In this document: one piece after another, positions 622-26,408 of the stretch | How positions within the stretch are numbered: position 1 is the first letter of the stretch | Layout: every line of letters begins with the position of its first letter | Assembly: GCA_037444665.1 (NCBI GenBank) | Contig: JBBILZ010000037.1 | Coordinates: 1 to 26,655, forward strand | Direction: 5' to 3' | DNA: 26,655 nt | DNA from: a candidate division WOR-3 bacterium | GTDB lineage: Bacteria; Hydrothermota; Tepidihabitantia; SM23-42; JAOAFX01 | The notes under the pieces: generated by a model | Databases searched by the model: none | The model's input: the letters and a program-made list of their open reading frames with translations, nothing else | Told to the model about the DNA's origin: nothing | Made by a program: the position numbers and the translations under genes

Positions 622-1530
622 ATGAAGGTTGGCATTTTAATACCTGCCTATAATGAATATGAAAATATCCCGCATCTCATCGCAATGTTTGATGAATTCA
701 TTAAAACACACCCGCATTACGAAGTTATCTTCATAGATGATGGTTCAACAGACTCTACTCAGAAGGCATTAAAAAATTATAAAAGAAGTTATCTAAAAGT
801 GGCACAGCATAAAAGGAATTTAGGCAAAACCCAGGCAATCATTACTGGAGCCCGAATAACTGACGCACCAATTTTAGTAATATATGATGCAGATATGCAA
901 TTTGAAATAACCGATGTTCCCAGACTTGTTGACCTTATTATTAATAATAATGCAGATGTGGCAACAGGCTGGAAACAGGGCAGGTATGAAAAGAAATTCG
1001 TGTCCAGTGTTTATAATTGGTGTGGTAGAAAATTATTTAATTTAAAAGTCCACGATATGAATGCAATAAAAGCATTTAGAAGGGAAGTTTTACAGGCAAT
1101 ACCATTACGCCGTGACTGGCACCGCTACATTGTTCCGCTGGCAAATGAATATGGTTTTCTGGTCAAAGAAATACCAGTTACGCTGAAGCCGCGTCTATAT
1201 GGAAAACCAAAATATCAAAAAAAATCCCGTATCATCATCGGTTTTTTTGACCTCCTTGCAGTAAAATTTCAATTGTCTTTTATACAAAAACCATTATTAT
1301 ATTTTGGAACAGCAGGGATGGTGCAGATACTCATCGGTATAATTATTGGAATAATTGCAGTTGTCTTGAGAATTCTGGGACATGGTTTCAGGCCTTTATT
1401 ATATCTTGTAATTCTCTTTATTGTCTCAGGTATCCTTTTCTTTTCATTAGGACTGATTGGCGAATCAATCCGTGCAATCCTTGACCGCATTGAAAAATTT
1501 GAACATCCTGATAAACCATCAATTGAGTGA
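622..1530 (+). CDS. GT2 glycosyltransferase, polyprenol-phosphate glycosyltransferase (DPM1/ArnC/GtrB-like)
   Basis: IPAYNE, DDGSTD and DAD motifs; two C-terminal transmembrane helices. Confidence 0.9.
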   Translation: MKVGILIPAYNEYENIPHLIAMFDEFIKTHPHYEVIFIDDGSTDSTQKALKNYKRSYLKVAQHKRNLGKTQAIITGARITDAPILVIYDADMQFEITDVPRLVDLIINNNADVATGWKQGRYEKKFVSSVYNWCGRKLFNLKVHDMNAIKAFRREVLQAIPLRRDWHRYIVPLANEYGFLVKEIPVTLKPRLYGKPKYQKKSRIIIGFFDLLAVKFQLSFIQKPLLYFGTAGMVQILIGIIIGIIAVVLRILGHGFRPLLYLVILFIVSGILFFSLGLIGESIRAILDRIEKFEHPDKPSIE

Positions 1531-1548
1531 AAACACTGAATTTGAAAT

Positions 1549-2529
1549 ATGATTTCGCAGACTACCAATGATACAAAAAAGTCAAAATTGAACTTATTCT
1601 GGAATCTATTGAGAATTTTAATCGGAATTCTATTGATTGTATTTCTTCTTATAAAACTTGATATAGAAAAAATCTTTCTTCAATTTAAAAGTCTAAATAT
1701 AAAATTTTTGCTTTATGCTCTTATTCCATATTTTTTATTCATAGTTGTCTCTGCCTGGCGATGGCAGGTATTGCTTGATTATAAAAGAATGGCAATGCCA
1801 TTCAAAAACTCGCTGATTATCTATTTTATCTCACTATTTTTTAATAATTTTTTACCCACAACAGTCGGCGGCGATGTAATGCGTGTATTGTATTCAATGA
1901 AAAACAGAAAGACTGATGCATTAGCAATTGTCCTCGCTGACAGAATTCTTGGATTTGTTGGATTGTTCATCTTTGGTCTCTTTGCAGTGGTATATCTCTA
2001 TCTATTCCAGAAAAGAACCGAATTTATCTTATTGATGATTATTGGATTGTTTGCCCTTATCTTTTTGACTTTTATACTCTTTTCTGAAAGAGTCTATGCA
2101 ATTTTTGCACCCATAATGGTAAAGATTAAATTGCTTAAAATTGGAGACAGGATAAATAATCTCCATAGAACAATGACCGATTTTGGCTCTGCCTGGGGTG
2201 TGATTATTTTGTGTATTATCCAGTCAATCATTATCCAGGCACTCCTTGCAATTGCTCCTTATCTGGTTTTGCAAAGTATGGGCAATTTTGAGGTTTCGCT
2301 TCTGCCTTTTTTTATCTATTTGCCCATTATTAATGTGATCTCAATGATTCCGATATCATTCAATGCCCTCGGAGTAAGAGAAAACGCCTATGTATTTCTG
2401 TTCCAGCGTGCAGGTTTAAATGGCGAAGTATCAATTACTGTTTCTCTTGTTTCATTCTTTTTAATCTTTCTGTGGTCTTTACTTGGCGGCGTTTTCTTTA
2501 TTTTTTATAAAAAAACTTCCAATGTTTAG
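1549..2529 (+). CDS. Lysylphosphatidylglycerol-synthase TM / UPF0104 flippase-like membrane protein
   Basis: Multi-pass hydrophobic protein with RW, FFNNFLPTTVGGD-R, DR and P-S-NALGVRE motifs. Confidence 0.85.
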   Translation: MISQTTNDTKKSKLNLFWNLLRILIGILLIVFLLIKLDIEKIFLQFKSLNIKFLLYALIPYFLFIVVSAWRWQVLLDYKRMAMPFKNSLIIYFISLFFNNFLPTTVGGDVMRVLYSMKNRKTDALAIVLADRILGFVGLFIFGLFAVVYLYLFQKRTEFILLMIIGLFALIFLTFILFSERVYAIFAPIMVKIKLLKIGDRINNLHRTMTDFGSAWGVIILCIIQSIIIQALLAIAPYLVLQSMGNFEVSLLPFFIYLPIINVISMIPISFNALGVRENAYVFLFQRAGLNGEVSITVSLVSFFLIFLWSLLGGVFFIFYKKTSNV

Positions 2530-2560
2530 GCATTTAGGCATTTTGGTATTTAGGCATTTA
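2525..2560. repeat. 8-bp tandem repeat (TTTAGGCA x ~4.5)
   Basis: TTTAGGCA TTTAGGCA TTTTGGTA TTTAGGCA TTTA, overlapping the flippase stop codon. Confidence 0.8.
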
Positions 2561-2576
2561 TCACAAAGGGAGGTCT

Positions 2577-3866
2577 ATGAAAGTCTGTATGATTGGCACA
2601 GGTTATGTGGGACTTGTCTCAGGAACCTGTTTTGCAGAGATTGGACATAATGTCATCTGTGTGGATAATGATGAGAAAAAAATAGAAATTTTAAAAAATG
2701 GAAAGATTCCTATTTATGAACCTGGCTTATTAGAACTTGTGCAAAAGAATGTTGCGACTGGAAGATTAAAATTTTCTACTTCCATTAACGAAGGGGTGCG
2801 TGAATCACTCTTTATCTTTATTGCCGTAGGCACTCCGCCAAAAGAGAGTGGAGAGCCTGACCTCTCCAGTATTGAGAATGTAGCGAGCGATATTGGTGAA
2901 GCAATGGAAGATTATAAAATTGTAGTAGAAAAAAGCACAGTTCCAGTGCAGACTGGAAAATGGATAAGGACAGTGATTGAACGATTTAATAAAAAGGACA
3001 TTCCTTTTGATGTTGCTTCAAATCCTGAATTTTTAAGAGAAGGTTCAGCAATAAATGACTTTCTAAAACCAGACCGTATTGTCCTCGGTGTTGAAAGTGA
3101 AAGGGCAAAAGAAAAACTTTTGGAGCTATACCAGCCGATCAATGCCCCAAAGATGATCACTGACCTCGCAAGTGCGGAATTGATAAAACATGCATCAAAC
3201 TCCTTCCTCTCTATGAAGATTTCGTTTATCAATGCCCTATCAATCATCTGCGAAAAATCTGGTGCTGACATAAAAAAAGTCGCTGAAGGCATTGGATTGG
3301 ACAAACGGATTGGTAGAGACTTTTTAAATGCCGGCGCTGGATTTGGTGGATTCTGTTTTCCCAAAGACCTGAAGGCATTCATCGGTATTGCCCAGAAATT
3401 AGGCTATGACTTCAGACTACTGAAAGAGGTAGAAAGGATAAACGAAGAACAGATGTTATATGTGGTGAAAAAACTTGAAAATCTGTTATGGAATTTAAAA
3501 AGCAAACAGATTGGAATTCTCGGTCTATCTTTCAAACCAAATACAGATGATATGAGGTTTGCACCATCAATCACAATAATCAATGAGTTAAAAAGGCAGG
3601 GTGCAACAATAAAGGCATACGACCCGGTAGCAATGGAAAGGGCAAAAGAAGTTATGCCTGATATTGAGTATTGCCCTGATGCCTATAGTGTAGCAAAAAA
3701 TTCTGATGGTATTATTCTTGTAACTGAATGGGAAGAATTCAAGAATCTGAATCTTAAAAAATTGAAAGAATTGATGAGACAACCCGTATTCCTTGATGGC
3801 AGGAATCTATTTGAACCCGAAGAAATGAAAAAAATCGGATTTATTTATACAGGAATCGGAAGATGA
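2577..3866 (+). CDS. ugd: UDP-glucose 6-dehydrogenase
   Basis: GTGYVG Rossmann motif, KSTVP, NPEFLREG, GFGGFCFPKD with the catalytic Cys, FKPNTDDMR. SD GGAGG. Confidence 0.95.
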   Translation: MKVCMIGTGYVGLVSGTCFAEIGHNVICVDNDEKKIEILKNGKIPIYEPGLLELVQKNVATGRLKFSTSINEGVRESLFIFIAVGTPPKESGEPDLSSIENVASDIGEAMEDYKIVVEKSTVPVQTGKWIRTVIERFNKKDIPFDVASNPEFLREGSAINDFLKPDRIVLGVESERAKEKLLELYQPINAPKMITDLASAELIKHASNSFLSMKISFINALSIICEKSGADIKKVAEGIGLDKRIGRDFLNAGAGFGGFCFPKDLKAFIGIAQKLGYDFRLLKEVERINEEQMLYVVKKLENLLWNLKSKQIGILGLSFKPNTDDMRFAPSITIINELKRQGATIKAYDPVAMERAKEVMPDIEYCPDAYSVAKNSDGIILVTEWEEFKNLNLKKLKELMRQPVFLDGRNLFEPEEMKKIGFIYTGIGR

Positions 3867-4792
3867 AGATACTGATCACTGGCGGTGCAGGTTTTATTGG
3901 TTCACACCTTGTTGATTACTACTTAGAAGGAGACAACGAAGTCATTGCGGTTGATAATCTGATTACGGGCCGGGAAGAAAATATCAAACACCATTCAGGA
4001 AATAAAAAATTTAAATTTTTTAGCACGGATGTCTGTTCTCTTGGTAGGATTGATATGAGTATAGATTTCATCTTCCATCTTGCTTCTCCGGCGAGCCCTT
4101 TTGATTATCTGAAATATCCTATTGAGACGATGAAGACCGCATCCCTGGGCACAATAAATATGCTGGAACTGGCACTTAATAAAAAAGCAAAATTCATCCT
4201 CGCATCAACGAGTGAAGTTTATGGTGACCCCTTGGTCCATCCCCAAAAAGAGGAGTACTGGGGTAATGTCAATCCCATTGGTCTCCGTTCTGTCTATGAC
4301 GAAGGTAAGAGGTTTGCTGAAGCAATTACAATGGCATATCATAGAAAATACAGCCTTAAAATCGGAATTGTACGAATTTTTAATACCTATGGCGAAAGAA
4401 TGCGCTCAGGTGATGGACGTGTCATTCCTACGTTCATAAACCAAGCATTAAAAAATGAACCTATGACAATCTTCGGAGACGGCAATCAAACAAGAAGCTT
4501 TTGCTACATCAGCGACCTTATTAGAGGAATCGTAGAGCTTGCAAGAACAGATTATTCAATGCCTGTTAATCTTGGCAATCCCAATGAATTTACAGTATTA
4601 GAACTCGCTCAGAAGATTAAAAAATTGTGTAATAGCAGGAGTCAATTTGTTTTTCAAGCTCTGCCTGAAGATGACCCGCACCGCAGAAAACCTGATATAA
4701 CAAGGGCAAAAGAACTTCTTAAATGGGAACCTGAAGTTGACCTTGAAACAGGTCTGGTAAAATTGATTGAATGGTTTAAAAATAAATCTTGA
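3863..4792 (+). CDS. uxs: UDP-glucuronate decarboxylase (UDP-xylose synthase-like, extended SDR)
   Basis: GGAGFIG, HLASPASP, STSEVYGDP, YWGNVNPIG, YDEGKR (YxxxK) and DDP-RR-PD motifs. ATGA overlap with ugd. Confidence 0.88.
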   Translation: MKILITGGAGFIGSHLVDYYLEGDNEVIAVDNLITGREENIKHHSGNKKFKFFSTDVCSLGRIDMSIDFIFHLASPASPFDYLKYPIETMKTASLGTINMLELALNKKAKFILASTSEVYGDPLVHPQKEEYWGNVNPIGLRSVYDEGKRFAEAITMAYHRKYSLKIGIVRIFNTYGERMRSGDGRVIPTFINQALKNEPMTIFGDGNQTRSFCYISDLIRGIVELARTDYSMPVNLGNPNEFTVLELAQKIKKLCNSRSQFVFQALPEDDPHRRKPDITRAKELLKWEPEVDLETGLVKLIEWFKNKS

Positions 4793-4816
4793 CAGGAATA
4801 ATTTTTGGCATATAAT
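4789..4816 (+). promoter_or_regulatory. Sigma70-like promoter of the SBP-TonB gene
   Basis: TTGACA (4789-4794), 16 nt, TATAAT (4811-4816). AAGGGGG SD before the ATG at 4842. Confidence 0.8.
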
Positions 4817-4841
4817 GTATTTATAAATAAAAGGGGGTAAT

Positions 4842-6914
4842 ATGAAAAAATTTGGAATTATATTAATAGTTATTGCACTAACAATTTTTAGTTGTGCTAA
4901 GAAAGAAGAAAAGTTAACGGGCGAGCAGGGTGGGAAAATGGTGATTGGGACCACAGATTTACCAGGCACTATCTCTCCCTTACAGCCCAATGTGCTCGGT
5001 TCAAATGAAATACTTGACCTGTTGTTTATGAAACTGCACAGGATAGATGCCACAGGTAAAATGAAACCAGAACTGGCATCATCCTGGGAATTTTCTGAAG
5101 ACCTTAAGGCGATCACTTACTACCTGCGAAAAGATATTAAGTGGTGGGATGGTGAACCAGTCACTGCAGAAGATGTCCTTTACACCTATGAAAAGATGGT
5201 GGACCCAAAAACCAATTATCCATTTGTTTCTTCATTCAATATAATTAAAAAAGTAGAGTTAATTGATAAATATACGATCAAATTCACATTCAATCAGGTC
5301 TATGCAAACCTTATTACTGATTCGGATATAATGCCAATTCCCAAACACATCTATGAAAAGATTGGTGACGAATTTGGAAAGAGCAAAATAGTAGGAAATG
5401 GACCTTACCGGGTCAAGGAATGGGTTCCCAATTCTGGACTTGTGTTAACTGCTAATGATGAATATTATCGGGGCAGACCTCCACTGGATGAAATTATCAT
5501 AAAATATTATAACAATGTTGAGGCAATGATTACTGATTTTGAACAGGGCAATTTAGATTTTGCCCTGAACCTCAGTCCGGCTGAGGCAAAGAGGTTGTCC
5601 GGTAACCAGAATATTAATGTTGCTTCAAAGCCCGGGAACAGTTATATCTATCTTGGCTGGAACCTAAATAACGAATTTTTAAAGGATAAAGAAATTCGTA
5701 AGGCATTAACAATGGCGATCAACCGAACCCAGATACTCAATGACATATTCCTCGGAATGGGTAAAATTTCACTTGGTCCTCTTCCCCATTCATCCTGGGC
5801 ATTTAATGAAAATATCGCAACAGTGGAATACAACCTTGAGAAGGCAAAAAATATTTTGACACAAAGAGGCTTTGAGGACCGCAACCGCAATAAAATCCTT
5901 GATAAGAATGGAAAAGACTTTACCCTCACAATCATTGCCAATGTGGAGAACCCGGAACGAGTCCAGATCTTATCCTATGTTACGAACTATTTAACCCAGC
6001 TGGGGATTAAGGTCAATGCCCAGAAAATGGATGTAAACTCTTTTATTTCAGCACTCTTGAGTGGTAAATACGACGGTTTTATTATGGGATGGAGTGTTGG
6101 CGATAAAATTGACCCAACACTTTACTGGCATTCTGACCCGAAGCGCGGTAAATTTAATTTTATAAGTTACAAAAATACCGCAGTTGATTCACTCATTGAA
6201 CTCGGAACAATATTGCTAAATAGAAAAAAGGCAAAGGAAGTCTGGGGTGAATTTCAGCGAATTGTTTATGAGGACCAGCCATATACATTTCTTATTGTGC
6301 CAAATGAAATTTCTGCCACCTACAAAAGGGTAAAAGGAACAGGCCAGGGAGTTAATCTTGCCAGTGCATACACATATTGGATACCAGCATCAGAAAGAAA
6401 GGTTACAGTCGCAGCAGTCATAACACCACCCACCCCAACACCTACACCTACAACAACGACACCTACCACAACCACCCCTACTACAACCACGCCGACAACG
6501 ACAAAAACAGAAACAAAAGTAGAGACAACCAAACCACCTGCACAAGCAGTCTCGCCTGAAAAATTATTAGAGGCGGCTGCCGCATCCAAGGAAACTACCG
6601 CCACGGTTACTCCACCACCAACGACAACGCCATTCAAACCTTCTGTTATAACCAGGCCAGTCCCAGTTAAACAGATCAAACCCAAATATCCGGAAGCGGC
6701 AAAAGCAATTGGTGCAACAGGCAAGGTTGTAGTTAAAGTATTAGTGGGAACCGATGGTAAAGTGAAATCAGCCAGCATCTATTCAAGTTTTGGTAATCCT
6801 GCTTGTGAAGATGCAGCACTCACTGCTGCAAAACAATGGGAATTTAAGCCGGCAACAAAGGATGGAGAACCATTTGAGCAGAGTATCCAGATACCTTTTG
6901 ATTTCAAACCATAA
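4842..6914 (+). CDS. Lipoprotein: family-5 (OppA/AppA-like) solute-binding domain + Pro/Thr linker + TonB C-terminal domain
   Basis: Lipobox IFSC. SBP-5 motifs PELASSW, LRKDIKWWDGEPVTAEDV, GNGPY and IRKAL-MAINR. Linker TPPTPTPTPTTTTPTTTT. C-terminal PKYPEAA...G-VVV-VLVGTDGKV...DAAL-AAKQWEFKPATKDGEP...IPFDF. Confidence 0.85.
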   Translation: MKKFGIILIVIALTIFSCAKKEEKLTGEQGGKMVIGTTDLPGTISPLQPNVLGSNEILDLLFMKLHRIDATGKMKPELASSWEFSEDLKAITYYLRKDIKWWDGEPVTAEDVLYTYEKMVDPKTNYPFVSSFNIIKKVELIDKYTIKFTFNQVYANLITDSDIMPIPKHIYEKIGDEFGKSKIVGNGPYRVKEWVPNSGLVLTANDEYYRGRPPLDEIIIKYYNNVEAMITDFEQGNLDFALNLSPAEAKRLSGNQNINVASKPGNSYIYLGWNLNNEFLKDKEIRKALTMAINRTQILNDIFLGMGKISLGPLPHSSWAFNENIATVEYNLEKAKNILTQRGFEDRNRNKILDKNGKDFTLTIIANVENPERVQILSYVTNYLTQLGIKVNAQKMDVNSFISALLSGKYDGFIMGWSVGDKIDPTLYWHSDPKRGKFNFISYKNTAVDSLIELGTILLNRKKAKEVWGEFQRIVYEDQPYTFLIVPNEISATYKRVKGTGQGVNLASAYTYWIPASERKVTVAAVITPPTPTPTPTTTTPTTTTPTTTTPTTTKTETKVETTKPPAQAVSPEKLLEAAAASKETTATVTPPPTTTPFKPSVITRPVPVKQIKPKYPEAAKAIGATGKVVVKVLVGTDGKVKSASIYSSFGNPACEDAALTAAKQWEFKPATKDGEPFEQSIQIPFDFKP

Positions 6915-6946
6915 AAATTGACGGGCTGGGAGACTGATTAATGGTC

Positions 6947-6974
6947 TTGACAAAATAAAGATTATAAATATAAT
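6947..6974 (+). promoter_or_regulatory. Sigma70-like promoter
   Basis: TTGACA (6947-6952), 16 nt, TATAAT (6969-6974), upstream of the 7078 gene. Confidence 0.75.
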
Positions 6975-7077
6975 ATAGAATAGAAGATGAAGATAATGGA
7001 CAGATTAGCAAAATGCAGGATTGGATGTTTAGGATTCCGAACCAATAACCTGTTTAGCATCTTAATCAAGGGGGTTT

Positions 7078-8169
7078 ATGAAAAAAATAATCGTGATATT
7101 TTTTATTGTTCTATTATCAGCGGCTGAATGGCAGCAGCGCGAAGAATTTACATTGCCAAAAGGAATCATTGTTAATGATATAAAAGTTGGATTTGATGGC
7201 AAAATCTGGATTCTAACCAAATCCTCCCTTTCGCAATTTGACTATAACACAAAAGGACTCACGCTCTTAACAGAGACTCAAAATAGCAAACTTTTTACGC
7301 TTAACAGCGAAGGAGAATTCTTCTTAATTGATAATAATAGACTCCTGATTCTAAACACAGATAATGAAAGTCGTGCACTATCGCTGAGCATCACAAATCC
7401 AGTTCAGATTGAAGCGGCAAAAATTAATAAAAAAAATATCATTGCTATCTCTGAAGGTAATCGTATAATTTTTACTTATGGTGAAGAAATATTGGGCACG
7501 CTGAATACAACCGTTGAAAAATTTTCCATCCTCACCAATATTGGAGAGCAGAAAAACGATTTAATAATTTACACAATGGCAGCTAACCAACTCTTTTTCT
7601 GGACAATCGGCCAACTAAATAATCCTGCAACTTATAAGAGCCAGCTGCTATTCAGTGCCTCTGAACCTATTCTTGATTTCACAACCGGCCAGGATGGAAA
7701 AAACTACATTCTCTTTAAAGATTCAATCATCGTTCTGAAACCTAATGGTGAGCGAGAAAACAAAATTTTAGTTCAGAATATCTCTCCTGGTTCAAGAATC
7801 TTTATCTATTCCACAGATAATTCAATGATACTATTTGACCGCGATGATAAAACATTAAAAATACTTTCTCCGGGAACAATAACAAAAAGTGATATTATTG
7901 CCCTTAACAAAAATCGTCCCAATCCAGTTGAAAACTATACTGAAATTGAATTTACACTAAATGAACCAATGACCATCACACTGACCATTTATAATCTGAT
8001 TGGAAAACCCGTAAAAGTTATTGCGAGCGGGTATTATAACAAAGGCACTCACACCATTCCCTGGTATGCTGATGATGAAAAAGGTATTCCTGTTCCAAAT
8101 GGCGTCTATTTTTATCGCCTTGAGACAAAAAGGGGTGTGTTAATAAAACAGCTCATTGTGCTGAGATAA
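7078..8169 (+). CDS. Secreted protein, probable beta-propeller with a C-terminal FlgD-Ig/T9SS type A sorting domain
   Basis: Signal peptide MKKIIVIFFIVLLSA. C-terminus NRPNPV...IYNLIGKPVK...W-ADDEKG-PVPNGVYFYRL...LIVLR. Confidence 0.8.
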   Translation: MKKIIVIFFIVLLSAAEWQQREEFTLPKGIIVNDIKVGFDGKIWILTKSSLSQFDYNTKGLTLLTETQNSKLFTLNSEGEFFLIDNNRLLILNTDNESRALSLSITNPVQIEAAKINKKNIIAISEGNRIIFTYGEEILGTLNTTVEKFSILTNIGEQKNDLIIYTMAANQLFFWTIGQLNNPATYKSQLLFSASEPILDFTTGQDGKNYILFKDSIIVLKPNGERENKILVQNISPGSRIFIYSTDNSMILFDRDDKTLKILSPGTITKSDIIALNKNRPNPVENYTEIEFTLNEPMTITLTIYNLIGKPVKVIASGYYNKGTHTIPWYADDEKGIPVPNGVYFYRLETKRGVLIKQLIVLR

Positions 8170-8177
8170 AATTCTCA

Positions 8178-8903
8178 TTGGCAAAAACATTAAAATTAAT
8201 AAAGTCAACATTTTCATCGGTCAGAAAGGTCATTGAGCGATTCAATATTCTGGGAAAAAACTCGGATGTCGTCGTTGGTACTTCAGGTGGTATTGATAGT
8301 CTGGTCCTCTTATTTCTATTAAAAGAATACAATGACCACTTCCAGCAACACTGGAATATTTATGCCTGTCATATTGACCCGGGATTTTCAGGGTGGGATA
8401 CAGGTATAATTGAAAAATTCTGCAAAGGTTTAGAGATTCCATGCAGCATAGTAAAGACAAATATCAATAAACGTCTGCAACTGGTTGAAAAAAAATGTTT
8501 TTTTTGCGCCCGCGAGCGGCGGCGTAAATTATTAGAATATGCTGAATCATTGGATATCTTTCAGGTTGCCCTTGCCCACCATCGTGAGGATGTTGTAGAA
8601 ACATTTCTATTGAACATAATCTACAATGGCGAGATTTCAACACTCGTTCCCAGACAATCAGTTATTCAGGGTCGTTTTTCCTTTATCCGACCAATATACT
8701 ATCTTGATAAAAAAGAGATTAGAAAGATTGCCCAGCTTCTAAAGATTCCAGAAAATGTAAATAAGTGTCCATATTATCAGATATCAAAACGGCAGACAAT
8801 TAGAAATTTTTTAAATGAGATTGCACTTGAATATCCTGATGTGTACAATAGCATCTTCAATGGCATTAAAAACATCAAACCTTCCTATCTCCCCCACTAC
8901 TAA
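8178..8903 (+). CDS. ttcA: TtcA-family tRNA thiolation protein (PP-loop ATPase)
   Basis: SGGIDS PP-loop, CFFCARERR, ALAHHRED--ET, IRP and C-terminal CP. TTG start. Confidence 0.75.
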   Translation: MAKTLKLIKSTFSSVRKVIERFNILGKNSDVVVGTSGGIDSLVLLFLLKEYNDHFQQHWNIYACHIDPGFSGWDTGIIEKFCKGLEIPCSIVKTNINKRLQLVEKKCFFCARERRRKLLEYAESLDIFQVALAHHREDVVETFLLNIIYNGEISTLVPRQSVIQGRFSFIRPIYYLDKKEIRKIAQLLKIPENVNKCPYYQISKRQTIRNFLNEIALEYPDVYNSIFNGIKNIKPSYLPHY

Positions 8904-9536: not shown

Positions 9537-11297
9537 TCAATCCTTTTTTGCTGATGAGATTGCATTGTGCTGGCACAATTGAACACATAGGTCACAACCT
9601 GAACAGAGTGTGGGTTCAATATATGCTACAGGCTTCTCTTTTGTTGAAATTTGCTTTAAACTTATTGCCGGACAACCAAGTCGCAGACACAATTTACAAC
9701 CATTGCAATTTTCTACATCAACAACAAGATATGGTTTTGGCTTTTTCAGGAGTGCACACAGATTACGAAAAACAAGCACGGTTACACCATTATAATTCAA
9801 TGCCTCTTTTATTGCCTGCTCAGTTTCTTTGAGATTGGTTGGGTCCACGACCCTTACAAATTCTACGCCACAACCACGAGCAACATCTTCAGGTAAGACC
9901 CTTTTGCCTTCTTCACCACGAGCAAGTTTTCCAGTTCCTGGATGTGGCTGGTGCCCGGTCATTGCAGTAGTTAAATTATCAAGAATAATAAGATTCAAAT
10001 TGCCTTTGTTATAGACTGCATTTAATAGACCAGTGACACCCGAGTGAAAGAATGTAGAATCACCGATAACTGCTACTAATCTTTTATTAATATCTTTACC
10101 ACCTGCCTTATCCATACCATGGGCATTGGTAACTGAAGCACCCATACAGATACAAGTATCCATTGCATTCAACGGTGGTAAAGCACCGAGCGTATAACAA
10201 CCAATATCACCCGTAGCAATAAGTTTAAGTTTATTTACTACATAGAAGACTCCACGCTCTGGACAACCAGGGCATAGCACTGGTGGCCTCTCTGGGATCT
10301 CCTTAATTGCTATATCCGGTCTATACACAGATTTTTTAAAACTTTTTTTTATCACTGTAGGGTCAAGTTCGCCACACAATGGAATCTTCTCTTTACCCAC
10401 AACATTTATTCCTAATGATTTTATCTCCTGCTGGAGAATCGGGTCTCCCTCCTCAATAACAAGAACCCTTTTCACACCACGGACAAATTTTCTTATCAAT
10501 TTTTCAGGCAGAGGGTATGTGAAAGATAATTTCAAAAAACTTGCCTCAGGAAAGACATCCTTGGCATGCATATATGCAATACCAGAACTTATTATTCCAA
10601 GATTTTTATCTTGCCACTCTATACGATTATAAAGAAATTCCTCAGCATAATCAGCAAGGTTTTTTAATCGTTCTTCAACTCTCTGATGTAGAACCCGCGC
10701 ATGCGCAGGTAGAACCAATCTTTTTTAATATCTTTTTGTATAGCCCTTCAAGGAAATCTCCTGCCTTGTCCCGAGTTCTACAATACCTGATGAGTGCGAA
10801 ATACGTGTGGTAAGCCTTAAAAGAAATACACTATCAAATCTTTCTGACAATTCAAAAGCCATCTTTGTAAATATCTTTGCTTCATTAGAATCTGAAGGTT
10901 CAAGCATCGGAATCTTTGCATGCCTTGCATAATGCCTATTGTCCTGTTCATTTTGTGAAGACCACATTCCCGGGTCATCACAGGTTACAATCACAAAACC
11001 ACCGGTCACACCAGTATAGCCGATTGTAAACATCGGGTCTGCAGCAACATTCAAACCTACATGCTTCATTGCAGTAATTGCCCGGGCACCGACAAAAGAT
11101 GCACCAGCACAGACTTCAAGTGCCACTTTTTCGTTCACTGACCATTCAGCATAAATTTCTGGATATTGAATAATATTCTCAAGAATCTCTGTTGAAGGTG
11201 TGCCTGGATATGCTGCAGCAAAATGGCAACCCGCCTCCCAGGCACCTCTGGCAACCGCTTCGTTGCCTGAAAGTATTTTTCTATTGCTATTCTTCAT
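9537..11297 (-). pseudogene. iorA: Indolepyruvate:ferredoxin oxidoreductase alpha subunit with an in-frame TAA at 10725-10727 (pseudogene or sequence error)
   Basis: N part (10725-11297): LSGNEAVARG, YPGTPSTE, NEKVALE, MKHVGLNVAAD, SSQNEQD. C part (9537-10718): RPPVLCPGCP, GDIGCY, IGDSTFFHSG and two ferredoxin CxxCxxC motifs. Both parts are in the same frame, 6 nt apart. Confidence 0.88.
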
Positions 11298-11305
11298 AAT
11301 ACGAG

Positions 11306-11333
11306 ATTATACTTAGAAATTAACCCGGGTCAA
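11306..11333 (-). promoter_or_regulatory. Sigma70-like promoter of iorAB (near-leaderless)
   Basis: TTGACC (11333-11328), 16 nt, TATAAT (11311-11306). ATG follows 8 nt later with no SD. Confidence 0.7.
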
Positions 11334-11393
11334 TACTACGATATTACCCCAAATAATCTTAGTTAGAATGCTGCTTAAAATAGTGGGGATTTC

Positions 11394-15849: not shown

Positions 15850-16449
15850 CTAACTATTATTATGATTTGGTCTTGGAATATGAGAATTTATATTTTTTTC
15901 ATCGTATACATCAAAAATTTGTTTACAAAAGTTAATCATTCGGTGATCTCCGATAGCAACTGCTTTCTCATAAAGTTTTATAAAATATCTTTTGCCTGCT
16001 TCAGTTTGCGAATAATTTTTCTTCATAAGATTATGCTCCATACACAAGGTCTGGCCGTTTTCTATGGTGTTAGTACCACCTCTATCTTTCGGCTTTATAT
16101 GATCAACACATAATTCTACTCCATCTTCTATCCCTCTTCCACAGACCACACACCTAAAATTATCTCTTTTAAAAATATCTTCTTTTTGCTCAGGAGAAAA
16201 TTCGAAAACTTCTACTTTTTTAATTAATGCGGGGTCATATCTATATATCCCCTTTTTTACTTTTATCAATATACCTTTTTGATGGAACTTTCTGATTTGT
16301 CTCCAAATATCACGTGGTTTTTTGCCATAAAGTTTTAAATATCGTACCTCAACCCAGTCAACTACAGGACCATGTTTTAAATCGCAATTAGGATATTTTT
16401 TGAAATACTCAAGAACCAAATCTCCTATAGTTTTATTTCTTTGCTTCAT
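15850..16449 (-). CDS. HNH endonuclease, putative type II restriction enzyme
   Basis: FKRDNFRCVVCG...VDHIKPKDRGG-N-IENGQTLCMEHNLMK; basic N-terminal domain; ATGA overlap with the methyltransferase. Confidence 0.88.
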   Translation of the reverse strand: MKQRNKTIGDLVLEYFKKYPNCDLKHGPVVDWVEVRYLKLYGKKPRDIWRQIRKFHQKGILIKVKKGIYRYDPALIKKVEVFEFSPEQKEDIFKRDNFRCVVCGRGIEDGVELCVDHIKPKDRGGTNTIENGQTLCMEHNLMKKNYSQTEAGKRYFIKLYEKAVAIGDHRMINFCKQIFDVYDEKNINSHIPRPNHNNS

Positions 16450-17318
16450 ACCATTATTTTCTGAAACTTTAATTGCTCTATGCTACCTTCTTTTATTATT
16501 CTATTTTTCGCTAATTCACAATAAGCGGTATCAATTTCAACACCGATACCACAACGATTAGTTTGCAGACAACCAATCAACGTTGTACCGCTACCGAGAA
16601 ATGGGTCAAGAATCGTATCGCCAACGTAGCTAAACAATTTTATACAACGCTTAGGTAATTCAACAGGAAAAGGTGCAGGATGCCCAACCCGTTTTTTACT
16701 TTCACCTATAAAAGTCCAAACACCATTGGTCCATTCCAAAAATTCTTTTCGCGTTATATCAGAAACACCATTATTAATTTTTCTCCACTGCTTTTTGTAT
16801 AAAACAATAATTACTTCAACCGGTGCAATTACGTATGGAGCCCGCGCAGAAAGCCATGACCCCCAAGCAGTTCGGCGCGATATATTTTGTTCATTCCAGA
16901 TGATTGTAGAATGGTATTTCCAGCCAATCTTTTTGGCGATTGTAGTTATATCAGCACATACACTCTGTTGACCCCCTTTATTTTTATCGAGCGGTACATT
17001 TAGACAAAATCTTCCATCATCTTTTGTCAGGTCATAACACACGACTAAATATTCTTTTGTAAATTTCAAATAGTCATCGTAAGTCATACGATCGTTGTGA
17101 ACCCCATATTTGATATCAACATTATACGGTGGTGAAGTTACTATCAAATCAATACTGCTTTCTTTAATAGTCTTTATTTTTAGAATATCCTCATTATAAA
17201 TATATATTTTATCCGTTTTGAAATATAGATTATTATAACTTTGAATTGTTTCTGAAACCTTATTAATTTTATTACTGCTTTTCTTTTTATTTATGTATTT
17301 ATTTGTCCTGGTAGCCAT
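16446..17318 (-). CDS. Site-specific DNA methyltransferase, beta class (N4-C/N6-A)
   Basis: TSPPY motif IV precedes HPAPFP and DPFLGSGTT motif I. Confidence 0.93.
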   Translation of the reverse strand: MATRTNKYINKKKSSNKINKVSETIQSYNNLYFKTDKIYIYNEDILKIKTIKESSIDLIVTSPPYNVDIKYGVHNDRMTYDDYLKFTKEYLVVCYDLTKDDGRFCLNVPLDKNKGGQQSVCADITTIAKKIGWKYHSTIIWNEQNISRRTAWGSWLSARAPYVIAPVEVIIVLYKKQWRKINNGVSDITRKEFLEWTNGVWTFIGESKKRVGHPAPFPVELPKRCIKLFSYVGDTILDPFLGSGTTLIGCLQTNRCGIGVEIDTAYCELAKNRIIKEGSIEQLKFQKIMV

Positions 17319-24622: not shown

Positions 24623-26408
24623 ATGAAAAAGATTATAACTTGCCTTTTAATGGTTTTAGTTCTGAGTGTTGCATGTTCACTATAGTATGTCTGATTATAC
24701 CGCTTCCAACTGGACACCCTATCATATCATTGAAGACCCGGAGACCCATAGAAAAGACGAAGGCTGGTATCCAACCATTGGTCTGGTTCCGGGTTGGCTT
24801 ATAGCAAAGATGCCCTGCATTGTTTATTGCTCGGGTCAGGGCGAGGTAAAGTATCGCTGGCTTGAGGATGGCACGCTACAGTGGCATGGCTTTACGCTTT
24901 TGCCTGCTACTACCGGGCTTGACCCTGGTCCGCCATCGGTCTATACTTATGGAGATTCTGTCTATGTGGTATTTTCAGTAAATTTTTTAGAAGGTGGTGA
25001 ACAACTCTGGAGTGCGATTTATTTTTACCAGTTTTCTTTTTATGCAACTGAAGCCTGGCCTGAAGAACTTGATTATTCACCAGGGCCGCTCCTCGCCTAT
25101 AGAAATGCCTCAATCGTTGTTGATGGTAATGGTAATCCGCATGTAGTCTGGGACAAGTGGGCTCCCTGGACTGGTGACTATGAAATCTACTACCGCTGGC
25201 GGAATAATGGTGTATGGGACCCACCGCTTGCTAATCCACCGCGTAGGATTTCAGAACAGCTGCCAAACTACGCTGACAAGTCGCCACACATAGATTGTTA
25301 TGGTAATGACTTATCTGTAGTTTGGTATGATGAAATTTCTGGCGTTCCAAACGAGATTTTGCGGAGACGAAAAGATATTTCATTAAATTTGTGGGCTGAC
25401 GTAGACCCACCGTACAGCCAATCACCCGGAATTCGTTCTGAGTTTCCCGTAAATGCGGCTCACGATTTTTCAGTCTGGTGTGAAATCGGTAATTCATCTG
25501 ATTATGATATCCGCTACCGGAGTGATACCTATGGTTTTGGCTGGGTTTCTCAAGAGCCTGAAAAAGAATATTTCTGCCACAGTCAATTGCAGAGAGACTG
25601 GTCGCCCTGGGACCTCTATACCATCTTCACCAAAGGCAATACCACACCTTATCAGATTGTCTGTGTTCATCAACAGTTTGGTAGTGGTCCTCCAGGTGGT
25701 GAATCACCTCTATACATTGTAGAGACAGGTCAGGATTCTATCTCTCCATTCTGTCTACACCGTGATGGAAAAATCACTTACACCAATTACTCAGTTGACT
25801 ATGGCACAAATGAACTCACCTATGAACTCTCTTTCCTTGACCCAACATTCCCTTTCCATAAGATAAAAGGCACTGCCTATTTTGAAGGTAATAGCAACAG
25901 AACCTATGAACTCTGGGTAAACGGTGAAAAGAAACATGTCTTTACGGTAAGACCAAATAAAGTTTATGATTTTGATCTCTTGATTCCCCGGGAATTATAT
26001 CAGCATACGCAGCGGATTAACTTTTCAATAAAGAATCCTGCTAATACTGGGGCCTGTCTTGCAGCACTGAGTGTCTATCGTAAGATTGATGCGAAATCTG
26101 GTGGTCCGCAGTCATACGGAACTGTAGAATTCAAAAATTCCAGTGAACTGACAATAGCGCCAAATCCATTCAAAGAAAAAACCGTTGTCAGATATTCCGC
26201 AGCCATAAATCATCCGACCTCAGCGAATATATATGATGCTGTTGGACGATTAGTAAAACGATTTGACGGTTTAACCATGCAATCATGCAAACAGATTACC
26301 TGGGACGGTTGTGATGACACAGGAAAACTTTTGCCGAGCGGTATCTATTTCTTAGAGTTAAAGCTTGCCAATAAATCAATTACTACACAGATAATTTTAT
26401 TGAGATAG
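24623..26408 (+). pseudogene. T9SS/FlgD-CTD secreted protein with an out-of-frame signal peptide (main ORF 24666-26408)
   Basis: GGAGG SD + ATG 24623 encodes MKKIITCLLMVLVLSVACSL-stop (TAG 24683-24685). The 580-aa body is in another frame and ends with PNPF...IYDAVGRLVK...TWDG-DD-GK-LPSGIYFL...IILLR. Confidence 0.7.

Follow-up and report, generated by a model that had tools for sequence, protein, structure and literature searches.

The stretch analysed here, referred to as the window, comprises positions 1 to 26,655 of contig JBBILZ010000037.1 of a candidate division WOR-3 bacterium (assembly GCA_037444665.1), and a single open reading frame (ORF) on its forward strand encodes the whole of a 690-residue protein in which a solute-binding domain of family 5 (cluster C) is fused to the C-terminal domain of TonB (Table 1). 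An earlier reading of this DNA, made without database searches (hereafter the sequence-only reading), had described a lipobox, a full family-5 domain, a Pro/Thr-rich linker and an intact TonB_C domain, and this anatomy was borne out by Pfam, by a 37-sequence family alignment and by an AlphaFold2 (AF2) model built from that alignment (mean predicted local distance difference test, pLDDT, 83.4). Pfam SBP_bac_5 matched residues 73-430 with 297.2 bits (E 2.4e-88; cut-off 32.4). The last 90 residues or so proved to be TonB_C as proposed, with 76.5 bits over residues 613-689 (E 2.2e-21; cut-off 24.6; positions 2-78 of 79, that is 77 of the profile's 79 positions), 67.4 bits against NCBIfam tonB_Cterm (cut-off 27.1) and a YP motif (Y616, P617) invariant in all 37 family sequences. 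In the AF2 model two confident domains, residues ~30-520 and 601-690, were observed, with ten-residue-block pLDDT of 79-97 over residues ~21-520 and 83-93 over 601-690, falling below 50 at 530-568 and 583-600, with a short helix (572-584) between. The linker varies in length and composition among family members, being Pro/Thr-rich in the window protein and Glu/Lys-rich elsewhere.

At the N-terminus, all 21 family members displayed have a hydrophobic stretch followed by a Cys, and Cys18 of the window protein is predicted to be lipidated. This signal peptide is the sole N-terminal hydrophobic stretch, and the membrane helix by which TonB couples to ExbB is absent from the protein, which fits the earlier claim that the energising helix has been replaced by a lipid-anchored binding protein. 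The gene had also been credited with a promoter of its own, and a sigma-70-type site matching the consensus at 12 of 12 positions does lie 26 nt before its ATG; it is no more than a consensus match, since the region held 10 such sites against 7.8 +/- 2.8 in shuffles. Moreover, a scan of 25 further ORFs in the window detected no ATP-binding cassette (ABC), ExbB/ExbD or TonB-dependent receptor domain, in line with what had been stated for the neighbourhood.

Table 1. Coordinates of the fusion gene, its parts and related features. Contigs of G000 belong to the window's genome; G002 is a genome of family f13.
Feature	Sequence	Position	Strand	Basis or remark
Whole ORF	window	4842..6914	+	690 codons plus stop
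Sigma-70-type promoter-like site, TTGACA-16 nt-TATAAT	window	4789..4816	+	consensus matches 12/12
GGGGG ribosome-binding-site-like run, 4 nt before ATG	window	4833..4837	+	read from sequence
Putative lipoprotein signal peptide ending in Cys18 (..TIFSC)	window	4842..4895	+	Cys18 invariant in 37/37 aligned family members
Family-5 (cluster C) solute-binding domain, residues ~30-517	window	4929..6392	+	Pfam SBP_bac_5 E 2.4e-88
Island 1, beta-prone motif E518-P530 (ERKVTVAAVITPP) just past the binding fold	window	6393..6431	+	family alignment
Pro/Thr-rich low-complexity linker, residues ~529-600	window	6426..6641	+	low pLDDT, composition
Island 2, short helix P572-T586 (PEKLLEAAAASKETT)	window	6555..6599	+	alignment and AF2
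TonB C-terminal domain with YP motif (Y616 P617), residues 601-690	window	6642..6911	+	Pfam TonB_C
MCP + SBP_bac_5 protein	G000 C12	7209-10427	-	window's genome
MCP + SBP_bac_5 protein	G000 C44	9333-12482	+	window's genome
Free family-5 lipoprotein and histidine kinase	G000 C20	34550-37560		window's genome
Free family-5 lipoprotein and histidine kinase	G000 C68	7672-10582		window's genome
Cobalamin riboswitch before BtuB-like receptor	L103 (G000 C11)	8246-8439	-	59.8 bits
Cobalamin riboswitch before BtuB-like receptor	L091 (G002)	11184-11367	+	92.3 bits

The fusion is a real and conserved gene. When the 120 best database homologues were scanned, 119 (599-705 aa long, 51-97% identity) showed both Pfam domains, the single exception being a 458-aa entry (P0118), and some of the two-domain homologues come from contigs of up to 2.8 Mb. 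Contigs of runs X1, X3 and X4 cover all of positions 4700-7100 and one X2 contig covers 6241-7100 (X1-X4 are four study codes; X1 is possibly the sample of origin, while X3 and X4, whose figures are identical, may be one data set). Near-identical DNA occurs in hot-spring and sediment habitats. An assembly chimera at the junction, raised as a concern by the sequence-only reading, is thereby excluded. Among 201 sampled genomes of the phylum, 70 carry the fusion in one stop-free frame (668-737 aa, 30-99% identity, at least 95% query coverage); partial matches in 8 more are mostly cut by contig ends. Two full-length copies were seen in none of the 201 genomes, and the gene is single-copy.

With regard to distribution, every sampled genome had a match at E <= 1e-20 in families f1 (6/6), f2 (10/10), f13 (6/6), f14 (4/4), f17 (14/14), f19 (20/20) and f27 (6/6), nearly all of these matches being the fusion itself, and several smaller families were likewise all-positive. 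No match to any part of the fusion was found in families f4-f8 of the same class (0/41 genomes), nor in f12, f16 (0/8), f23 (0/8) and other families, and hence what is lacking there is a close family-5 protein, not a fusion that has been split. The gene is vertically conserved over many families and stands in housekeeping surroundings. In a set made of the window and 20 loci across families, each taken with 9 kb on either side, no conserved neighbour was found and no gene family was common to more than 7 of the 21 loci; shared neighbours were sugar-nucleotide enzymes and MscS in f1 and f2, and pyrR/pyrB/pyrC, ribD and the tRNA synthetase gene aspS elsewhere.

Beyond this sample, a profile search over 1.84 billion representatives placed 16 clusters (50% identity) matching over roughly the full length, plus P0150, before plain binding proteins, and both domains were present in all 10 of these that were scanned. 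Outside the lineage the combination of SBP_bac_5 and TonB_C was not found, the tail-region and profile searches returning it only in the fusion family, whose named sources are WOR-3, TA06, Stahlbacteria or 'bacterium'. Public databases already list proteins of this architecture, with unspecific labels such as 'TonB family protein' and 'peptide/nickel transport system substrate-binding protein', and a literature search found no paper on an SBP_bac_5 + TonB_C fusion.

In the window's genome, an assembly of 2.54 Mb in 120 contigs that is 99.5% complete, ExbB-ExbD-ExbD-TonB clusters occur twice, on contigs C43 and C11, beside a Tol-like cluster on C32 and another canonical TonB on C1; the census that the sequence-only reading had recommended gave three ExbB genes and six receptors in all. 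The C-terminal domain of the fusion shares 45% identity over 67 residues with the C1 TonB, and its identity to the C43 TonB is 36%; in the genome scan it scored 80.9 bits with Pfam TonB_C, beside 82.3, 72.7 and 54.6 for the canonical TonBs, and it is as good a match to canonical TonB from this genome as those paralogues are to the family. Furthermore, a profile of the fusion tail (residues 512-690; profile positions 26-176) is colinear with canonical TonB, beginning near TonB residue 50 and running on to the C-terminus, scoring 73-110 bits for seven canonical TonBs and 41 bits for the C11 TonB, with the alignment passing through the TonB linkers at low posterior probability. This colinearity suggests that the tail derives from the periplasmic region of TonB, and the simplest history would be the joining of a binding-protein gene to the periplasmic part of a tonB gene. 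A second protein with TonB_C and no membrane helix was noted on contig C44 (15539-16264, +); its 241 residues comprise a lipoprotein-like signal (..LLLAC), TonB_C closely behind it at 37-112 and a helical tail, and the Pro spacer is absent from it as well.

Like TonB, the fusion has a full C-terminal domain with a YP motif, preceded by a Pro-rich disordered spacer that is colinear with that of canonical TonB from the same lineage. Unlike TonB, it bears a lipoprotein signal and a 490-residue binding domain in place of the N-terminal membrane helix, and its gene is not beside exbB/exbD, for which reasons energy coupling of the TonB kind is not expected. An ExbD gene lies about 6.4 kb from the fusion in one genome (G149) and far away in another (G187), and the proximity was judged coincidental.

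Three islands in the linker are kept down to 31% identity in the family alignment. The first (..WIPxxERR-V-x-V-A-x-hydrophobic..P) retains its hydrophobic-x-hydrophobic-A-x-hydrophobic core down to that level; a plain family-5 homologue (P0153) stops a few residues past the equivalent Trp, and the AF2 block pLDDT drops there from 86 (511-520) to 52 (521-530), with no strand assigned by DSSP. The second has the pattern PExLLEAA, in which E573 and L576 are nearly invariant; its modelled helix has a pLDDT of about 63, and the tail profile sets it against the linkers of canonical TonBs at low posterior probability. The third, PPKPSVITRA, runs into the TonB_C domain. Passages of PMC10907165 describe in TonB a D-box, a Pro-flanked motif in which hydrophobic residues alternate with hydrophilic ones; it immediately precedes the polyproline segment and is gripped by an ExbD dimer. 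Island 1, family-conserved, outside the binding fold and directly before the Pro-rich spacer, shares the position and pattern given in those passages. By resemblance only, it looks like a TonB box also. The fusion could be imagined as energised, with island 1 acting as a D-box or TonB box gripped by ExbD or by canonical TonB, and the force passing through the arm or the binding domain. The likeness is one of position and pattern: a profile of the motif (residues 512-530) gave no significant match to the TonB proteins of the genome, at about 0 bits (best E 0.1 in a 10-sequence database; best segment KVAVAAAPSE of the C43 TonB, 0.4 bits), and a membrane helix that could rest against ExbB is missing from the fusion. 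We regard this energised variant as improbable, and we give little credence to a related idea, in which a paralogue of TonB would have exchanged its membrane helix for a lipid-anchored ligand sensor and, with island 1 as the handle, the proton-motive force would act through the arm on a receptor or on the binding domain to release the ligand. If true, the latter would represent an ABC-independent, force-coupled use of a solute-binding protein.

The binding domain belongs to a well-studied fold. Its closest solved sequence is Bacillus subtilis AppA (1xoc; phmmer E 1.4e-66), and Foldseek with the AF2 model returned 1xoc (E 7.4e-49) and Campylobacter jejuni NikZ (4oet; TM-score 0.88, target-normalised; root-mean-square deviation 2.9); further solved relatives, after AppA and the NikZ nickel binders, are DppA, GbpA, opine binders and MppA. 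With the cluster C binding proteins AppA, NikZ and Escherichia coli DppA the fusion shares fold and length, and many proteins of that cluster carry a lipoprotein signal as it does. It differs from them by its 170-residue TonB-derived tail and by a genome without a cognate permease or ATPase. NCBIfam equivalogs for Opp4A, NikA, GsiB and DppA gave scores far below every cut-off, so the domain is that of a family-5 binding protein of no named specificity. R383 and D436 of DppA (precursor numbering) are, we presume, the residues that hold the peptide termini. The column of R383, the Arg that pairs with D436 in the DppA charge-swap mutant (entry 8z1z), holds Asn, Asp or Glu in the fusion family (N/N/D/E/E/N in six members), and that of D436 lies one position away from a conserved acidic residue, the alignment being ambiguous by one residue.

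MppA is a murein-peptide binder, and its place among the solved relatives brings in a structural role, in which the binding domain would hold a cell-wall peptide in the manner of MppA and TonB_C would hold an outer-membrane protein, tying the layers of the envelope together. A single-copy, vertically conserved gene in housekeeping surroundings would suit such a staple. Against this, MppA is a far weaker match than AppA (E 2.5e-24 versus 1.4e-66), and the search did not find the gene in over half of the genomes sampled, among them all 41 of f4-f8 in the same class, an absence that argues against an essential structural role. We consider the staple very unlikely.

The family-5 fold appears in other settings within the same genome, which has five SBP_bac_5 genes including the fusion. 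Two of the others encode proteins of ~1050-1070 aa with an N-terminal methyl-accepting chemotaxis protein (MCP) signalling region and a C-terminal SBP_bac_5 domain; neither has a hydrophobic segment (their Kyte-Doolittle means over 19 residues peak at 1.24 and 1.49), both look like soluble chemoreceptors with a binding-protein sensor, and frames of this type (1047-1139 aa) recur across the phylum. The remaining two are free lipoproteins of 513 and 514 aa, each directly 5' of a histidine kinase gene, which suggests binding-protein-dependent two-component sensing, and the one on contig C20 is matched by the SgrR model NF010149. Family-5 sensors, namely SgrR of E. coli and its type and the MCP fusions described here, thus have the same fold away from ABC transport; they are cytoplasmic signalling proteins, whereas the fusion is exported and, as predicted, lipid-anchored.

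In this context, the fusion may be viewed as a regulator or decoy, its unenergised TonB_C competing with TonB for TonB boxes while the binding domain senses ligand, so that it would act as an uptake brake or a sensor. The signalling context of all other family-5 domains of the genome agrees with this, as do the lack of a membrane helix for ExbB and a consensus promoter suggestive of abundant expression. Yet allosteric coupling is hard to picture across ~85 disordered residues between the two domains, and no regulatory partner is conserved nearby in the window and the 20 further loci; on balance we hold this explanation to be unlikely, while keeping it among those that deserve weighing.

The sequence-only reading had proposed that the fusion is stationed under an outer-membrane transporter in order to channel substrate to an ABC permease of Opp/Dpp/Nik type, and the binding domain is indeed nearest to ABC-associated proteins (AppA, NikZ and DppA). 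The genome does not support it. Neither oligo_HPY, the Opp/Dpp ATPase signature, nor BPD_transp_1_N (PF19300), the N-terminal domain of OppB/DppB, had a match in the window's genome, each being positive in 11 of 14 control genomes; tblastn with E. coli DppB and DppC gave no match there at E <= 1e-3, and DppD retrieved generic ABC ATPases only. Its eight BPD_transp_1 genes form four pairs, two of them Pst (phosphate) and two carbohydrate CUT1-type. One of the latter, on contig C70, is an orphan permease pair with no adjacent binding-protein gene and could be taken as a candidate acceptor; CUT1-type permeases, however, use a different class of binding protein. The pair (2580-4347, -) is likewise without an adjacent ATPase gene, and the 704-aa protein downstream of it has no Pfam family.

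Across the phylum sample, in which co-occurrence was profiled for oligo_HPY, OPT, Plug and two receptors, oligo_HPY was present in 24 of the 201 genomes (f19 14/20, f23 2/8, f25 1/3, one in f34 and six in f40) and in none of f1, f2, f3, f9, f13, f14, f17, f27 and f28. Opp/Dpp-type ATPases do accompany the fusion in 11 of the 70 full-length carriers, mostly f19, but the other 59 have no oligo_HPY match; where Opp ATPases were seen with a family-5 gene on the same contig, 3-4 kb away, it was another one in both cases (G077:C17 and G124:C331), and in G011 the fusion lies ~19 kb from them. Consequently, hand-off to an ABC permease is largely refuted for the window's genome, and for the family as a whole it appears improbable. 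The window's genome has an OPT transporter and CstA, and no PTR2 transporter was found in it. OPT as a general acceptor was rejected, being present in 23 of 70 carriers, in none of f2 (0/10), f13 (0/6) and f17 (0/14), and in the non-carrier families f25 and f29; 38 of the 70 carriers have neither OPT nor oligo_HPY.

The reading that we tentatively prefer, at somewhat less than an even chance, is that the fusion serves as an unenergised tether spanning the periplasm, which keeps a binding domain under TonB-dependent transporters for the capture, retention or sensing of ligand and not for ABC delivery. The N-terminal lipid would fix the binding domain to the periplasmic side of the inner membrane, the flexible arm of ~85 residues would reach the outer membrane, and TonB_C would dock by strand addition on the TonB boxes of TonB-dependent transporters, with no energy from ExbBD. 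A peptide-like or metal-chelate binding site may thus be placed in the periplasm beneath active transporters, where it would capture, retain or sense the incoming ligand. This would not be the first step of ABC import, because most carriers are without a matching ABC importer. Docking under an outer-membrane transporter without ExbBD energy is plausible. The nearest precedent is given in passages of PMC3813593, which report that E. coli TonB binds FhuD and BtuF (Carter 2006; James 2009, cited there); the fusion shares with these pairs a link between TonB and a binding protein, and would make that link covalent, whereas FhuD and BtuF belong to another class and feed ABC importers.

As to the anchoring membrane, the inner one is probably right. 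We infer it because binding proteins of ABC systems in the same genome have similar Cys-ended signals, namely a sugar binding protein (C4) and the PstS on C64; the two free family-5 proteins have such signals as well, and a further PstS, on C32, has no such Cys. It is also favoured because a long spacer is needed only if anchor and target lie on opposite membranes.

Several points weigh against the tether. The fusion may be anchored at the outer membrane instead. Unenergised periplasmic fragments of TonB inhibit TonB-dependent uptake in E. coli, and a decoy made constitutively therefore needs explanation; the fate of the bound ligand, too, is unexplained if there is no inner-membrane acceptor. 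Nor was a partner obtained from synteny or co-occurrence. Plug-domain receptors are present in 201/201 genomes, and being universal they cannot discriminate a partner, and no receptor gene is consistently near the fusion in the window and the 20 other loci. A receptor stands divergently beside it in just three genomes, all f13. At 3 of 21 loci a C103-type receptor is encoded 3-6 kb away, a type confined to 8 of 201 genomes. The receptor of the C43 ExbBD-TonB cluster is present in fusion-less families (f4 19/19, f5 4/4, f8 8/8), and the carrier families f17, f19 and f27 gave no match to it at E <= 1e-100. The C43-cluster and C103-type receptors were rejected as partners, their distribution being unlike that of the fusion; three other non-BtuB receptors were not profiled.

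In the f13 genome checked (G002), the adjacent receptor is BtuB-like and lies behind a cobalamin riboswitch on the opposite strand, and its best match in the window's genome (29% identity) is also riboswitch-controlled (Table 1). This adjacency was judged coincidental.

Elsewhere in the window, the block upstream of the fusion gene (622-4792, +) encodes a GT2 glycosyltransferase, an LPG_synthase_TM protein, a UDP-glucose dehydrogenase and an enzyme of the NAD-dependent epimerase/dehydratase family, and it is syntenic with the fusion only inside the order, each gene recurring in 5-6 of the 20 loci fetched. Two secreted proteins (7078-8169, + and 24666-26408, +) carry a C-terminal FlgD_ig-like domain (E 2.5e-06 and 5.2e-06, respectively), an ending that resembles what we take to be the C-terminal sorting domain of type-9 secretion; the first has its own 12/12 promoter consensus at 6947-6974. 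Finally, at 15853-17318 (-) an HNH endonuclease (199 aa) adjoins an N6/N4 DNA methylase (290 aa), possibly a restriction-modification pair, with an ArsR-type regulator near.

In brief, what is new here is the missing ABC importer, both in the window's genome and in most carriers, together with the lack of co-occurrence with OPT or receptors, the signalling context of the family-5 paralogues, the colinearity of the fusion tail with TonB linkers and the conserved islands, three in number, within the linker. The steps of TonB-dependent import are understood as far as the periplasm; for the pick-up of cargo there, and for the recruitment of binding proteins by TonB itself, the evidence has come from a small number of in vitro studies on E. 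coli. As a natural and vertically conserved protein, the fusion is a ready-made construct for testing the link between TonB and a binding protein. Moreover, the linker islands may mark points of contact, not known from model organisms, in this lineage's TonB linkers. Carriers without an ABC importer raise the question of what role a family-5 protein plays with nothing to deliver to, in genomes where the other occurrences of this fold are tied to signalling by chemoreceptors and histidine kinases.

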